Notes: a model not told the origin generated them from the letters alone. Shown: positions 5,752-54,053, counted from the first letter of the stretch. The stretch: 64,000 nucleotides of DNA from Dictyostelium discoideum (GCA_000004695.1 CM000151.3:1920001-1984000), one strand, 5' to 3'. Numbers and translations: made by a program.

Positions 5752-19413
<13,662 letters not shown>

Positions 19414-19653: not shown

Positions 19654-19698
19654 ATGATTTCTAAATTATATACATATTTAAGTAAAATGGATAGTCAC

Positions 19699-19759
<61 letters not shown>

Positions 19760-22329
19760 TAGAAATTGAATTGCATGAGAAATTATTTTGGAAAATTTTT
19801 AGAAATAAATATATATTTAATGAGATATTCTCAAATTTTCAATGTTTAGGAATTAATAAATTTAGATATTATGATATTATTCATATATCATGGATGTTGG
19901 ATAATGGGTATATAAATTTAATTAAAGATAAAATTGAATTTCAAAAACATATAGTTTTTACAACTCATTTACCATCAGTAATTCAAAATAAATTTAGTGA
20001 ATCAAATTTATTTTTAAAATCAATGGATGAAACATTTGAAAGATTATTTAAAACATTTAAAGATAACAAAAATATAAATAATTTAGATGGGGACTGTACA
20101 AATAATTTAGTTTATAAATTTTATTTAAATTTATTTTCAGAAAATTATGAAAAAAACCATCAATTTGATTATTCTAATTTATTATTAATTTCAACGAGAT
20201 GTGGTAATTTAATTGTAAATAAAATTTTATATAAAAAAGGTTTTGAACAAGATACTTTAAAAAATAAAACTTTCGGAATAAAGTTATTTGAAAGTATAAT
20301 GAAATCAAATTCTTTAAAAATGATTAATTCATTTTTATCAACTTCATCATCATCATCTATAATAAAAGATAATAAAATATTTGATTACTATAAGAATCAA
20401 AATTTCAAAAATGATTTTAAACCAAATATTTATAAATTATTAAATGCATTATTTGATACAAATGAAATAACAAATAATTTAAATTTAAATGATAATGATG
20501 TTTTACAAATTATTTTAAAAGCAATCATTGAAAAATACTTTCCATTTAGTGATCCATTTTATTCAAATTTCAAATTAAATAATTTAATTGAATCAATTTT
20601 ATTTGCAATTAAAATAAAAATAATTAATGGTGATTATAAAATTAACAATTGTTCCTATGACCAAAATGAAATTAATTTAATTGATTTTTCAAATTCAATA
20701 AAATTAAAATATAATTCATTATTAAAATTATCATTAAGAAAATTAATTAATTTTAATAATAATGAATTTAATAATGAATTTAAATTATTATTAGAAATTT
20801 ATTTATTTAAAATAATGAAAAAACCAAGTCCACCATTTTTATATTATTTAAAATATTATGATAATATAAATATATATGATTATAATGAAAGTGATGAAAA
20901 ACTAAAAGAAAATGTTAAATTTATAAAAATATTGGTTGATAATAAATATGATAGTATTTTACCAAGATTTAAAAGATCAGTTTCAAAATCAAAATTATTT
21001 AGACAATCATTAAAACATGGTAATTATAATTTATTATTATATTCAGATTTAAATCAAATTAATCAAGAAACCTATAAAGAATGTGTATATGGTTTATATG
21101 AGAGAAAATCAAAAACTCCAAAATTATTATTCAAACATTGTAAAAATAATAGAGAAAAGCAATTTAAATTCTTAGAGGAAATTTCAAAGAATCAAATTAA
21201 AATTCATCCAATAACAATGATTTGTATGTTAATTGAATTACAAGATATTGAATTAATAGAATTTTATTTAAAATCAGTTGAATCAATTGATAAATGGTTA
21301 AAAGAGGTAAATCCAACACCTACAATTTCAATTGCACATTCAATTGAAACTATTGAAATGTTAGATTATTGTTTTAATAAATTTAATAATCATTTCAATA
21401 GAATTTCAATATCATGTTGGTATGAATATGGTCGTATTAATTTAATTAAAAGATATACTGATTTACGAATTCAATCAAATTGTGTCAATGATTCCATTAA
21501 AAATATACTATTACCATTTGATTCAGAATTCTTACTACATAATAGAAAAACCTCATTCAATGGTAAACTTTTACAAACAATGTGTTGGTTTATTAAAATT
21601 CAAAATTTACAATTATTTAGTGGTAATGGTGATGGGTCGCCATTATCAAATGAAAACGCTGTAAATGAATGTATAGCACTATGTAGAGATAAGAATTTAT
21701 ATTTAAATGAATTGATATTTATATTATCAAAAACAAAAACAATTTTGGATGGAAATAAAATAATTAAAAAAAAAAAATATAGTGATAATATTATCAATAC
21801 TTTAAAAACAAATATTGGTCACAATAGTAGTGGTGAACTTTCTAAATTTTCAGAATTTGTAAATTGGGCTTACTATTCTCAATCGCCATCATATATAGAT
21901 TTAAATAAATTTAAAATCCAACCAATAAATTTATATTACCAAACTAGTGAATTTAATAAATTAATGGGTTATATTGAAAATGAATTTAAAGAGTATACAA
22001 ATGAAAGATTCTTTTCAAGTAAAATTTGTAAACAATTATTATTTGAAATAGGTAGACTTGGTAACATTTCAGGTTTTAGAAATTTATTTAATTATTTACC
22101 TCAATCTATTGATGCAATTAAAGAGGTTTTAACAATTTCAGCACAATATGGAAGAATTAATATATTTCAACAATTGAATGAAATTTTAAATCAAGATCCT
22201 GAAATTACTGAAAATTATTTAGGAATTGATACTCATTTTAAACATTTTCTAATTAATGTAACTACAACAAATAGAAATTTTTATCTTTTATATTACTTTA
22301 ATAATCATTTTTCAATTATATACAAATAA
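19654..22329 (+). CDS. Member A of a lineage-specific paralogous family (891 aa). It is N/K/I-rich, with an N-terminal poly-Asn tract followed by the conserved motif LFWKIFRNKYIFNEIF and an ...ISWML... block.
   Basis: Single long ORF. The N-terminal region aligns with the ORFs at 40673, 43629 and 56953 ([LI][FY][FW]K[IV]F[RHK]N.[FY] ... [SK][WL][YW]M[LI]). C-terminal segments weakly resemble degenerate ankyrin-like repeats (LTISAQYGRINIFQQLNEIL). Confidence 0.6.
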
Positions 22330-29613: not shown

Positions 29614-31836
<2,223 letters not shown>

Positions 31837-32611
31837 TTTTAATTTTTTAAAAAAAAATATATTTTTGTGATTAAAAAAACAAAAAATATAATAAATTAAA
31901 TGATTTCTGTTATTAGAAAAATAATTAAAAAAAAAAAAAAAAAAAAAAGAAAAGAGAGAAAAGAAAAAAATGAATAGAAAAAGTAAAAAAATATTAATAT
32001 TAATCTTTTTTAAAAAAAATAATAATAATAATAATAAAAAGAAGAAAAAAAGGAAAGAAAAGAACAAAAAAAATAAAAAATTATTAATATTAATCTTTTA
32101 TTTTTTAAAAAAAAAAAATAAAAAAAAAATAAAAAAATATTATAATTATAAATGTGTATTATTTAATTGTTCTTTTTATAGACATAAATCACCTCCTCAA
32201 AACTCACACACACACTTTGATAAATAAAAACAAATAATTCTCAACGCCATAAACATCTTTTTTTTCAATAAAAATGAAATATGTTGTGACAGAATTTATA
32301 TAAAATGTTTTATTTTTAATTTATATCAACTTAAACCATAAAAAAATTTAAAAAAAAAAAAAAGAGCAAATTTGGGGTTTGGTATACAAAATTGGAAAAA
32401 AAAACAAAAAAAAACAATTAAATGAAACACATTTTCATAAATTGTTGTGTATATATATATTTTTTATTCTCTTACATGAGATATATATATATATATATTT
32501 TTTTTTATAAAATTTATTTATTTATGTTTATATATTTTTTATTTTTTTTTTATTTTTTTTATTTTTTTTTTTTTTTCTTTAAAACAAACTTGAGAAATTT
32601 AATAAATAATT

Positions 32612-33771: not shown

Positions 33772-34019
33772 ATTTAAATATTTTAATATATATATATATA
33801 TACAAGATGATGATAATAATTGATGAAAATAAAAAAAATTAAGAAAAAAAGAGAATGAAATTGTAATATATACAAAATAAAAAAAACAAAAATTAAATTG
33901 ATGAAAATAAAAAAAAAAAAAAAAATAAAAAATTAAAAAAAAATGAAAGTGGTGAGTTCAAAAAAAAAAATTAAAAAAAAATAAATTAAAAAAAAAAAAT
34001 TAAAAAAAAAAAAAAATAA

Positions 34020-35227: not shown

Positions 35228-36208
35228 ATGAAATTTAGACAATAAAAGAAGGCAGTGTAATTAAACAAGGTGGTAGAATAAAGAATTGGAAAAAAAGATG
35301 GTGTGTTTTAAATGAGGAAGGATTACATTATTTTAAATCTCAACATAGTATAGAAAAAGGTTCAATACTGTTGGCAGAGATAATATCAGTGGAGGGAGAT
35401 GATAAACCTGCAACTAAAAGAAAATATTGTTTCAAAGTTACAACCATCGATAGAAAATATAGAATATGTGCAACTGATTCATTGGATAGAGATGAATGGA
35501 TAAATTCAATTGAAAAACTTTTAAAATCAAAAGGATTATATAATATTGAAAATAATAATAATGGAACTGGTACAATTATAAAGGTACCTATATTATATTA
35601 ATGTATATATCTATACCCCCACCTAATTCACACACATATTAACATATTATGGATGAACATTTTTATTTTGTTTTATTTTTTATTAGACTTCAAAAAATGT
35701 AGATATTAATAAATTAAGGAGTGAAGAAGATGATGATTCAGAATCATCAACACATTCAAATAGTTATTTAGGTAGTAATTCAGTACCATCAATGAAAAAA
35801 ATAATTTTAACACCAATTATGGTATCATTAAAAGAAAAGTTTTCACAAAAAACATTTGCTGCAGAGTTAAATAGAAAGGTTAGTTGTTGTTGTTGTTTTT
35901 ATTATTATTATTATCATTACAAGACAGAGAGAGAGGGTTATTAATATGATGTTATGTTTATTAAAAAAAAAAAAAAAAAAAATTTATAGAAAGATTTATT
36001 ATCATTAGAAGAGACAGAAAGAGTTTTATCACTTTTAGATTCATATATTGATGGCGAAGTTGATGAATCACAAATTGAAAGAGATAGGGAAATTAAATTA
36101 ATTGTTAAACAAATTGCTCAAATGAAACAGGCTGAAATGGATGCAATAGAAAATAAATACAATCAAAAACGATTAGAGATTTTAGAAGAAATTAAAAGAA
36201 GGTCTTAA
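34958..36208 (+). CDS. Small PH-domain protein with a C-terminal coiled-coil, four exons (34958..34996, 35239..35583, 35687..35878, 35990..36208), about 264 aa.
   Basis: Exon 2 encodes a canonical PH beta1-beta2 region and C-terminal helix: KEGSVIKQGGRIKNWKKRWCVLNEEGLHYFKS...KYCFKVTT.DRKYRICATDSLDRDEWINSIEKLL. Donors are GTACGT, GTACCT and GTTAGT; acceptors are TTTAG, TATTAG and TTTATAG. Phases are all 0. Intron 1 contains a (TAAA)n array. Confidence 0.75.
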
Positions 36209-36264: not shown

Positions 36265-36373
36265 TCAATTAAACCAATTAATGAATCATTATAAAGAAAT
36301 CAAAAAAAAACCCAAAACCAGTGTAAATCCAAAAAAAAAAATAAAAAAAAAATAAAAAAAAATAATAGAAATT

Positions 36374-40672: not shown

Positions 40673-42949
40673 ATGGATATTTTATATTTTAAAGTTTTTA
40701 AAAATATATATATAAACAAGAAAATTTGGAGTTTTGTAAAAAGATATGACAAAACATCAAAAAGGTATGATGAAATAATATCAATTAGTGAATTGCTTTC
40801 GCTTCATAATAATAAAAATAGAATGAAAATTACAGATCAAGATAGTAGTTTAATTGAACTATTAAAATATAAAATTAAAAGAGGAGATATAATTTTATTT
40901 GATTTTAATATTCAACAATTAATACAAGTTTTTTCTAAAAATGAACAAATTAAACATGATAGAGAATTCTTTAGATGTTTAGTAACCTACTATAAAGAGG
41001 AATTAATTTTTATACCAAATTTATTAGAATCATTTTGTAAATATGGTAATTTAATAGCATTAGAAGAAATTACAAATTTAGAAAAAAGCAATAACAACAA
41101 CAAATATAGTAATAATAATAATAATAAAATTAATAAAATTATATATTATGAAAATTATAAGGTTTCAAAGAAAGCATTTGATTTAGCAATTGAAGTTGGT
41201 GAATTTAAAATTATGGATTTTTTATTCAAGAATCGTAATGAAGGTTATACAGAAAGAGATATTCTTGAGAATATATTTTTAGAAAGTAATAGTAGTAAAA
41301 TGTGTTTAGTTTTCTTAAAGTATGCATTAAATACAATGTCTATAGATTTGTCAAAATGTAAATCAATTAATATAGATTGTTATTACCATTTACAGGATGA
41401 TTTAGAAATTGCAAATAAATTAAATGAATTTGGGTTAATTCATTTTCAAGGAATATCTTATCTTTATCATAATATACCTTTTCCAATTTTAAATACACCA
41501 AATGAATTATTAAATATAGTTAAATCATTTTTATTTATTTTAAAAAAGTATATTTATATAAAACAAGAAGATTACAATGAAGATTATTTTAATAATGAAA
41601 ATTTTGAATATCCAATACCAAAAAGACCACCAATTGAATTAATTGAAAATTTTATAAATAATGAATGTTTATTTACAAATGAAGAATTAGAATTTGATAT
41701 TATTTTAAATTTTAAAGAAACTGATAAAAGAATTGAAAAATTAATTCATTGGTATATATTATTATTTGAACCCTATGGTTTATTCTCTGAATCTGTTGAT
41801 TTAATTTATTCATATATTGCAAAGTATACTAATGATACAATTGAAGATAAACAATTGGTTAATAGAATTTTTAAAAATTCAAATGATTGGGATAAAAATT
41901 TAATTTTTACAATAATATTTTTAAATTGTAATTTTAATTTATTTAATTCATTTTTTAATCGTTTCAATAATTATAGTTATAATAATATTGCTATAAATGG
42001 TATTAAAATTGGAATTTCTTCTTTATTTTAAATAAATTCAAATGAAAAGATTTTACAATTTCTACAATTATTTTATAATAATTATGATTTTAATAGTAAT
42101 TTAAAAAATGAAATTTTAAATGTCATTTATCAACATTTAAAATCAAAATCAAAATTAGAATTATTTTCTCAATTATTTGATTTATTACCTATAAAATTTA
42201 AAGAATATTGTTTACTCAATTTAAATGATGAAAAGAAAATAAATAATAATAATAATATTAATAATATTAATAATATAACAACAATAATTTTACCACAAAT
42301 AGAAACAAAATTATTAATTGAAAAAAAAATAAATGACAATGATTATGGTTATGATAAAAATAAAAAAATGAAAATTGACCCAATAGAGTTAATTAAATTA
42401 CAAAGATTCGAAGAATTATTTGAAAAATATTTTACTTATTATGATGATAACACTAAAGCTTTACTTGAAAATGAAAAACTTTATATTGAAATTGGTAATA
42501 AATGTGTACAATTTGATGAATTACTTGATAGGTTTATTAAAGTATTAATTAATTTTAATTTATTGGAAAATTCAAAAGAGTTTATAATAAATTCAATTTT
42601 AATTAAATCAATTAAAAATGGATTTTTAAAGAATTTACAATACTTTTTAACAACTGATAATAGAAATTTATTTAAAATTTCAAATGAAATTATTATAAAG
42701 ATTTTATTAAATTCAGCAATTATTAATGATAATATTACAATGGTTTCTTATTTACTTTCAATTTTATTTCCTTTTTTATTTTTTAATAACAATCAAATAA
42801 TATCATCTCAAACAATTCCAAGAATTTCAACAGTAACAAAAGAAGAAAAAGAATTGTTATTAAGTATTAATGAACAATTAAATTCTATAAAATTAATTAC
42901 AAAAATGGAAAATTATTTAAAAAAAACAATACTTTTTTTTGATTTATAA
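40673..42949 (+). CDS. Member B of the LFWKVF-motif paralog family. It forms one continuous reading frame of about 758 codons, interrupted by a single in-frame TAA at 42029..42031.
   Basis: ORFs 40673..42031 and 42368..42949 are in the same frame (1695 nt apart). The sequence between them (42032..42367) is open in that frame and coding-like (INSNEKILQFLQLFYNNYDFNSNLKNEILNVIYQHLKSKSK...). The N-terminus MDILYFKVFKNIYINKKIWSF matches the family motif. Confidence 0.5.
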
Positions 42950-43161: not shown

Positions 43162-43586
43162 ACATCATTACCATAATGATCTTCAAAAAAATTTTTTATT
43201 TTATATAATTTTTTTTTTATATTTTTATTTTTATTTTGGTTTTTTTTGGTTTTTTGGTTTTTTTTGGTTTTTTTTTTGGTTTTTAGATGAATTTAAAAAT
43301 ATCTTTTAAAATTATTTTTGGAAAAAATAAAGTTGAAATTAGAAGGATTGGGAGATTGATTCAAGTTAATTTTTTTTTTTAATTATTTTTTATTTTTTAT
43401 TTTTAATTTTTTAATTTTTTTTTTTTTTGGGGTTGAAAATTTTTTTTTTAATTTTTTATTTTTTGTTTTTTAATTTTTTTTAATTTTTTTTTTTAATACA
43501 AAAACAGTACGTTTTTATATCAATGCAGCCAAATAAATACACATACATATATTGCTTTTCATATTAATAATAATAAAAAATAATTT

Positions 43587-51369: not shown

Positions 51370-53023
51370 AATAATAATAATAATTAAAATAAAATGGAAA
51401 AAAAAAATTAAATTTATAATTAATTAAAAAAAAAAAAAAAAAAAAAAATTTATTTTTTTAATTGTAATAGGTAATCATTAAATTTCTATATACTGAAATA
51501 AATAAAAAAATGAGATAAAAAAAAAAAAAAAAAAAAAAAAACCACATTCCGATTACAACAGATAAAGCCATAAAATTAAATTGAAGTGTGGTAAAGATAA
51601 AAATAAATTAAAAAAATTAAAATGGTGTTTGTGGGGGTGAGAATAAAAAAAAAATAAAAAAAAAAACAATTAAAAATTAAAATAAAAAAAAAAAAAAAAA
51701 ACAATAACATTTTTGACCATATTTTATAAAAAGTTCATAAAAGGAAAAATCGATTTGGTTTTTTTATTTTTATTTTTATTTTTATTTTTTTTTTTTGTTG
51801 ATTTATTATTTTTAATTTTTTTTTTTTTTTTATTTTATTATTTTTTTTTAAAAAAAAATAAATAGTTTTAAAGAAAAAAAAAAAAAATAGTTTTACATAT
51901 TTATTTGCATTCTTTTTTTTATTTTCAAATTATTATTTTTTTTTTTTGTGTGTTCATTGTTTTTAATCAAAAAATAAAAAAATAAAAAAATAAATAAATA
52001 AAAAAATAAATAAAATTTTATTTTCAGTTTTTTTTTTTTTTTTATAATAATCAAATCAGCGATAAATTTGTTTTTTATTAATATTATTATTGTTTTTTTT
52101 TATTTTTTAAATTAAAAATCTTTATTAATAAGAATTAATTATTATATAATTAAATTTTATAAATTTTGGGTTTTTTTTTTTTTTTTTGTCATAAATTATT
52201 TTATTATTTTTTATTATTTTTTTGCATACCCGAATAATTATAATTTATTCAAATTAACGTACGATTTTCAATAGCATGTAAGTTTCATAGTTTTTAACCA
52301 TAGTAGATGTAACAAACCACTTTTTTTTATTTATTTTTTTAATTGTTTTTTTTTTTTCACGTGCAGAAAAAAAAAAAAAAAAAAATGGTGTTTGTATTTT
52401 TGATTTGTTTGTTGCAAATTATTACAAATGTCAAAAAATAATTTTTTTTATTTAATTTAATTTTTTTATTTATTTATTTTTATTTATATTTTTTTTTTTT
52501 TTTTTTAATGTATTAAAATAATTATTTGTTAAAAAAAAATAAAAATTTTGGATATTATTTTTTGGTTTTTTTCAATTTTTTTTTTTTATTGGTTTTTTTT
52601 TATTTTTTTTTTCTAAACATTAATTGTTAAAACCAAAAAAAAAAAAAAAATTAATATCCAAAAAAAAAAAAAAAAAGCAAAAATAGGATAATATTCACAG
52701 GTAAAAATAAATTAAATTGATCAAAAGGGAAATTTTGTCAGGTAAATTATTTTTTTTTTTTCTTTTAGGATTCCTAAAAAAAAAAAAAAGTAAAATAAAA
52801 TAAATAAAAAAAAATTAAAAAAAAATTTTTATTTGTAAATTCAAGTTCTCTTGTTATTACAAATTTAATCAAACAAATAAGGGTTACCACCACACACCCA
52901 ATAAAAAAAAAAAAAAATTATTAACAAACAACTAGTTGGTACATAATTATATAAATTAATATATCAAAAATAATATTAATATACAAAAAATTATCATTAA
53001 AACATTTTCTGTCCACCAAACTA

Positions 53024-53059
<36 letters not shown>

Positions 53060-54053
53060 AAAAAAAAAAAAAAAAAAAAAAATTAATTGTTGTGTGTTTG
53101 AAGTTGGGTGTTTTCGGTAAAAATTTTTTTTTTTTTTTTTGGTGGTGCATTTAATAGAAATGTTGTTTGGGTAGATAGAAAAAATGAGTGGTGTGTGTGA
53201 ATAATCTAATTTTATCAATATATAATAATAATAATTATAATAATAATAATAATAATGCAATATATTTGCACTTTTTTTTTTTTTTTTTAATTTCACTTTT
53301 TTTAATTTTTTTTTTTTTAATATACAATAATTTATTATGTAATAATTTAATAATCACATCAATAATCAATTTATATATATTTAATAATTTTAATAATTAT
53401 TATTTTTACTACACACTATTTTTTTTTTTTTTTTTTTTTTCACTTTAAAAATTACAGATTTATTTTGTCACAAAAAAAAACAAAAACAAAAAAACAATTG
53501 TTATATATGTATATGTATATATATATGTATATGTATATTAAATAAACTTATAAAAAATTAAAATTTCATTTATTATAACATTTTTTTTAAAAAAAAAAAA
53601 AAAAATTAATATTAAATATAAAATTACAAGCGAAAAAAACAAAAAAGAATTTTAAAATATTAAATTACATTCATATAATCAAAGAAATCTCACCACATGA
53701 AAAAATAAAAAAATAAATAAATAAATAAAAAATAAAAAAATAAAAAATAAAAAAATAAAAAAAATAAAAAAAAAAAACAACTCCCAATTCAACCATAATA
53801 ATAAATAATAAATAATACACCCTTTTTTATCTTTTTTTATTTTTTTTTTTATTTTTTTTTATTATTTTTATTTTTTTTAAATTATTATATTATTAATTAT
53901 TAATATCATTATTATTTTAATATTCCCTCAGTAACAATAAATCATTTTTCTTAGTTTGAATTTTTAAATAATAAAAACAAAGCGCTGTAATAATTTAAAA
54001 TTTTCCATTAATAGTTAATAAATAAATTAATAAATAAATATAATAATTAAAAA

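Follow-up and report, generated by a model that had tools for sequence, protein, structure and literature searches.

Gene models can be split in two by a single in-frame nonsense codon, whether in a unitary pseudogene, in a strain-specific null or through an assembly error, and the Dictyostelium discoideum locus described here resembles such cases in its adjacent same-frame ORFs, the open bridge between them and its full-length orthologs with GAA at the position of the stop. It differs from them in that the stop is absent even from the sibling laboratory strain and lies within a cluster of substitutions private to the reference, and the stop may not exist in the organism. Genes with programmed readthrough likewise have an in-frame stop followed by a long, open and conserved extension, but the stop at this locus is not conserved, being GAA in relatives, and it stands in the context TAA-A with no downstream structure. 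Comparison of the AX4 reference with resequenced stocks has uncovered 1,916 candidate reference discrepancies common to independent AX4 lines, which that study ascribes either to reference errors or to its AX4 clone differing from the reference (Saxer et al. 2012, PMC3466296). The differences at our locus are of the same kind, single-base and private to the reference; in the resequenced stocks they occur at ~1e-4 to 1e-3 per site, whereas the local rate here, ~1.2e-3, is several-fold above the genome-wide figure of that study. The encoded protein resembles dictyostelid ankyrin-repeat proteins (Heterostelium PPL_11418, Cavenderia DFA_07758) in a profile match at residues ~107-206 and in being predicted to be helical; unlike them, it reaches the cut-off of no Pfam ankyrin model, has no PDB match and is modeled with a pLDDT of 40.7.

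The locus lies in a window of 64,000 nucleotides from chromosome 2 of D. discoideum AX4, on which all positions below are counted. Translation of 40673-42949 gives 759 codons with one internal stop, a TAA at 42029-42031, and a terminal TAA at 42947-42949; the remaining plus-strand frames contain 72 and 154 stops over the same interval. The internal TAA closes ORF-A (40673..42031, 452 aa), and ORF-B (42368..42949, 193 aa) follows on the same plus strand in the common frame after a bridge of 336 nt (42032-42367; 112 codons, 12.5% GC). This bridge has no stop in the frame of the two ORFs, as against 13 and 26 in the other plus-strand frames and 7-19 on the reverse strand, and its openness is far beyond chance, since shuffling it 100,000 times never gave a stop-free sequence. 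Runs of A or T of at least 10 nt, numbering 8 and 10 in the true intergenic flanks, do not occur in it. The initial annotation had described two ORFs in one frame with a single internal TAA and a stop-free bridge of 336 nt, and both descriptions are confirmed, by the translation and by the shuffles. It had also proposed a single gene of about 758 codons carrying one nonsense codon, a model that is supported by five collinear, single-exon, syntenic orthologs with GAA at the stop, with the caveat that the nonsense codon is confined to the AX4 reference record and could reflect a sequencing error. We conclude that 40673-42949 is almost certainly one intronless gene of 758 codons, of which the AX4 models are the halves, and that its parts are as follows.

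40673..40822, plus strand: gene start, 50 codons (MDILYFKVFKN...), which the AX4 model DDB_G0272692 lacks, its start being Met51 (40823)
40673..42028, plus strand: N-terminal 452 codons of the single ancestral gene, the better conserved part, with a weak ankyrin-like region at ~110-205
41996, plus strand: AX4-reference-private G>A (GAT>AAT, D442N); GAT in five other genomes
42029..42031, plus strand: interrupting TAA, codon 453 (E453stop), by a single G>T at 42029; GAA in five other genomes
42032..42367, plus strand: bridge, coding sequence of the same gene and not intergenic, stop-free in the frame of the gene only and collinear with the orthologs
42194, plus strand: AX4-reference-private G>A (GAA>AAA, E508K), relative to five other genomes
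42368..42949, plus strand: C-terminal 193 codons and terminal TAA, annotated in AX4 as the separate gene DDB_G0272821
42501, plus strand: AX4-reference-private G>A (AGA>AAA, R610K), relative to five other genomes
42897, plus strand: AX4-reference-private C>T (ACT>ATT, T742I), relative to five other genomes

The AX4 reference carries the two gene models that annotation had been expected to produce, DDB_G0272692 and DDB_G0272821. The product of the first (XP_644894.1/Q86IG8, 402 aa) is residues 51-452 of ORF-A, and that of the second (XP_644895.1/Q86IG7, a hypothetical protein of 193 aa) is ORF-B residue for residue. When the 452-aa ORF, the 193-aa ORF and the 758-aa protein of AX2 type were looked up as exact sequences, nothing beyond the AX4 annotation itself was returned, and a literature search for DDB_G0272692 and DDB_G0272821 returned no papers. 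The true start of the gene is 40673 and not Met51. No ATG precedes it in the open frame, and an in-frame stop lies four codons before it; the equivalent ATG follows an in-frame stop by 4-7 codons in every genome, and codons 1-50 are almost invariant across the four aligned orthologs. The AX2 model ACTFIT_002620 also begins at Met51, like its AX4 counterpart.

A search with the read-through protein found, among the matches listed, full-length proteins of 758, 758 and 777 aa from D. discoideum, D. cf. discoideum and D. dimigraforme; the same search did not list the 193-aa fragment of the query itself. Members of the protein cluster add proteins of 761 and 708 aa from two further D. discoideum assemblies. 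At five orthologous loci the gene is a single exon of 2277-2334 nt, in every case divisible by 3, that begins at the same ATG as 40673 and encodes a protein of 758-777 aa. All five keep the gene order of the window, namely a proteasome subunit, a PH-domain gene, a gene of ~580 aa, this gene, a 1513-aa gene and a gene of ~760 aa. Collinearity of orthologs across the stop had been proposed as a check; the alignment is collinear in all five, with GAA there. The corresponding check for paralogs was confined to the window, where tblastn returned nothing beyond the self-match. The position of the stop falls inside a conserved block, GIKIGISSLF-E-xNSNEKILQFLQ, in which all five orthologs have Glu encoded by GAA and of which the part NSNEKILQFLQ belongs to the bridge. 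As judged from the genomes compared, the alignment shows that the ancestral codon 453 was GAA and that the change is private to the AX4 reference. Pairwise dN/dS among the orthologs is 0.2-0.5 for codons 1-452 and ~0.55-0.85 for the remainder, so that the C-terminal part appears weakly constrained by this measure, yet it is open in every ortholog genome.

Two other accounts of the stop were considered. In one, DDB_G0272692 and DDB_G0272821 are genuine, independent genes and the bridge between them is open by accident. This is the current AX4 annotation, and ORF-B does begin with an ATG, but an accidentally open bridge is what none of the 100,000 shuffles gave, the bridge lines up with coding sequence of five genomes, and it is without the A/T homopolymers seen in the real intergenic flanks on either side. 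The ORF-B stretch is contiguous with upstream sequence in all orthologs, and because D. dimigraforme has Glu in place of the initial Met, ORF-B is not a gene in its own right. The stop, moreover, is found only in the AX4 reference among the genomes compared. On the bridge statistics, the collinear orthologs and the non-conserved start of ORF-B we therefore reject a pair of independent genes as scarcely credible. In the other account, which is very unlikely, the stop is bypassed in vivo through an unrecognized intron or programmed readthrough and the AX4 sequence still gives the long protein. The TAA falls within 16 in-frame GT...AG intervals, 159-387 nt long; Dictyostelium introns typically begin with a GTAAGT-like donor, however, and none of the 16 does. 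Each candidate intron would remove at least 53 codons that are conserved and exonic in the five single-exon orthologs, those of GIKIGISSLFE.NSNEKILQFLQ for example, and rescue by an intron is rejected because all 16 intervals would delete conserved coding sequence. Readthrough is rejected because the stop is not conserved, all five orthologs carrying the sense codon GAA, because its context is TAA-A, which is a strong terminator, and because no downstream RNA structure is seen, the 131 nt after the stop folding at -10.8 kcal/mol (z = +0.5), no better than shuffles.

The single-gene product matches no Pfam family above the cut-off, the best model being Ank_3 with 13.5 bits where 22.3 are required (E = 0.11). 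A profile search that covered 1.84 billion representatives exhaustively returned its own family and 12 weak matches (E = 8e-6 to 6e-4), all 12 of which align to query residues ~107-206; the six of these that were scanned against Pfam all match ankyrin repeats strongly, and two carry the name 'ankyrin repeat' in their source. A profile search of the PDB gave no sequence match at E up to 1. AlphaFold2, run on an alignment of three sequences, predicts an all-helical fold that is unreliable (pLDDT 40.7, pTM 0.26). Among the matches listed, the confident homologs all come from five genomes closely related to AX4, that of D. dimigraforme and four in the discoideum clade. On these results the product is a fast-evolving protein, all-helical by prediction, with a slight ankyrin-like similarity that falls short of membership in the Pfam ankyrin families.

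The assemblies behind the five loci match those of Holland et al. 2025 (PMC12745789), which cover AX2-214, the diverged tropical isolates CR116C, OT3A, M4B and S6B, D. citrinum, D. dimigraformum AR5b and D. intermedium. One of the five, locus L002 (GCA_054883475.1), matches the window across 22 kb with 99.68% identity, as against ~92% for the other isolates labeled 'D. discoideum'. AX2-214 is the only non-diverged D. discoideum assembly listed in PMC12745789, and we infer by elimination that L002 is AX2-214; the same paper gives AX2 and AX4 as 99.5% identical at another locus and the coverage of the AX4 reference as 8x. Within the gene, AX4 differs from L002 at five positions spanning 902 nt (41996, 42029, 42194, 42501 and 42897). 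At all five, the five other genomes agree against AX4 and the AX4 state is the derived one; every change is non-synonymous and replaces G or C by A or T. The nearest independent assembly of this laboratory lineage, L002, thus has GAA and not the TAA.

When a second AX2 locus to the right of the gene (L006) is joined to L002, 33 kb can be compared, and over this length AX4 shows 40 substitutions, ~1.2 per kb. Sixteen of those that could be polarized are AX4-derived and at most four AX2-derived (binomial P = 0.012), the latter all in poly-A tracts. Substitutions lie within 100 nt of another in 29 of the 40 cases, with 8.4 expected, and the AX4-derived changes match an adjacent base in 16 of 16 cases, with 8.2 expected (P ~3e-6). 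Small clusters of substitutions private to the AX4 reference are found at 35797, 35799 and 35851 in the PH-domain gene, and also at 36312/36318/36329, 43668/43684/43687, 52882-53120 and 58342/58343; they include three A>C changes within 18 nt, and in the PH-domain protein they produce T>K and N>K, where four outgroup loci and L002 agree against AX4. These AX4-private clusters, with their copying of adjacent bases, suggest many small errors in this stretch of the reference.

On balance, we favor the view that the TAA is a consensus or base-call error of the 8x Sanger AX4 reference. Extant lines go back to a common axenic ancestor, as the identical axeB deletion in Ax2 and AX4 indicates (Bloomfield et al. 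2015, PMC4374526), the mutation rate is 2.9e-11 substitutions per site per generation (Saxer et al. 2012, PMC3466296), and nitrosoguanidine leaves at most ~34 variants per genome (Li et al. 2016, PMC5052037). Given this ancestry, rate and load, less than about one real difference is therefore expected in 33 kb, and most of the reference-private differences found here cannot be real because of their excess, one-sided polarity, clustering and neighbor-copying; the TAA is probably one of them. It would then be part of a local cluster of Sanger-assembly errors, the record giving TAA for the ancestral GAA at codon 453 would have led annotators to make two models, and living AX4 cells would make the full-length protein. 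A precedent exists in the 1,916 candidate reference discrepancies common to independent AX4 lines (PMC3466296). Several points nevertheless speak against an error. The five changes all fall at ancestral G/C sites and four are G:C>A:T, which is the spectrum of real mutation and of nitrosoguanidine, whereas G/C makes up ~17% of the gene and random miscalls would reach it only ~17% of the time. The first 1,323 nt are untouched, all five changes falling from codon 442 onward (P ~0.008 from the share of G/C sites), a placement that a real stop followed by relaxed constraint would give. Taken by themselves the five changes do not show significant neighbor-copying (P = 0.08), no frameshift interrupts the 2,277-nt frame, so that this stretch of the reference is not grossly poor, and the identity of L002 as AX2-214 comes by elimination.

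The same one-gene model would hold if the TAA were a genuine and very recent nonsense mutation, a G>T change that arose in the AX3/AX4 laboratory lineage, which we regard as possible rather than probable. AX4 would then make a truncated protein of 452 residues or none, the downstream 305 codons would be a decaying remnant, and the four nearby missense changes would also be real, perhaps as a local mutation cluster. The AX4-derived state and non-synonymous effect of all five changes fit such an origin, as do their uniform G/C>A/T direction and their confinement to codon 442 and beyond. In all four G:C>A:T transitions the mutated G, read on its own strand, has an A as its 5' neighbor, as reported for nitrosoguanidine, in whose spectrum G>A is dominant at 19:1 (PMC5052037). 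The final 954 nt of the gene show a 27-fold excess of changes at G/C sites over the remainder of the 22 kb (Fisher P = 1.3e-5), and the reading frame is free of indel errors. Set against this, neither spontaneous mutation nor a single nitrosoguanidine treatment would yield anything near five real substitutions in 902 nt, a number orders of magnitude too high for either, and if AX2 and AX4 come from one axenic ancestor, earlier mutagenesis cannot have produced changes private to AX4. The change that made the stop, G>T, is a transversion and not of the nitrosoguanidine type, and like clusters in neighboring genes and spacers, including the three A>C changes in 18 nt, cannot be due to nitrosoguanidine; as the cause of all AX4-private changes it is rejected on mutation load and spectrum. 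Three of the private missense changes come after the stop and one 11 codons before it, and codons 1-441 have none; the C-terminal part of intact orthologs, too, is under weak constraint, but relaxed constraint cannot lift the rate beyond neutral and the density of private changes is above any neutral expectation. An old natural null haplotype of a wild isolate was dropped as an explanation when the near-identical genome was recognized as a sibling laboratory strain. Rather unlikely, in our estimation, is the more specific proposal that the five G/C>A/T changes in 902 nt are a real, localized mutation shower in the AX3/AX4 lineage, whether a nitrosoguanidine replication-fork cluster or another kataegis-like event. 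Were it true, an ankyrin-like gene would have been silently knocked out in the most widely used Dictyostelium reference strain while the AX2 copy stayed intact, a concealed difference in genotype between the two laboratory backgrounds in standard use.

The value of these observations is mainly curatorial, for this is an ordinary gene model split by a nonsense codon and not a new biological mechanism. DDB_G0272692 and DDB_G0272821 should become one 758-codon model starting at 40673, with codon 453 flagged. If the TAA is an error, as we favor, Q86IG8 and Q86IG7 are artefactual fragments; if it is real, AX2 and AX4 differ by a null allele not known to users of either background. The wider point may matter more, namely that clustered, neighbor-copying substitutions occur at ~1 per kb and also alter residues of neighboring genes. 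They suggest that this part of AX4 chromosome 2 has many small errors, which the AX2-214 assembly could correct.

The comparison with the AX2-like assembly also showed 12 indel sites, at 33909, 34012, 34692, 34788, 37374, 40338, 43591, 51517, 51684, 53051, 56503 and 63680. AX4 is the longer at all 12, and all lie within or beside A or T tracts; the bias could arise if Nanopore sequencing compressed homopolymers in AX2 or if the Sanger reference over-called them. Two further loci labeled D. discoideum, L001 and L003, have ~87-96% DNA identity to AX4 over 30.8-52.6 kb of the window and a dS of ~0.05-0.06 in this gene, which is large for one species. They appear to be CR116C and OT3A, and their divergence fits the remark in PMC12745789 on diverged isolates.

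Elsewhere in the window, the word-indexed protein search gave no match among the candidates listed for an 891-aa ORF at 19654-22329, its own AX4 product included, presumably because low-complexity words took up all 8,000 candidates, a limit of sensitivity for Asn-rich Dictyostelium proteins. A sharp spike in GC skew (+0.47), accompanied by negative AT skew, covers 30001-32000 over a minus-strand ORF at 29614..32067 (817 aa). A single uninterrupted ORF of 4,143 codons with 26-31% GC occupies 6982-19413 on the plus strand. Just beyond the gene described here, a run of T(6-10)GG units (ggttttttttggttttttgg...) is found at 43220-43285, ~340 nt upstream of the 1513-aa ORF.
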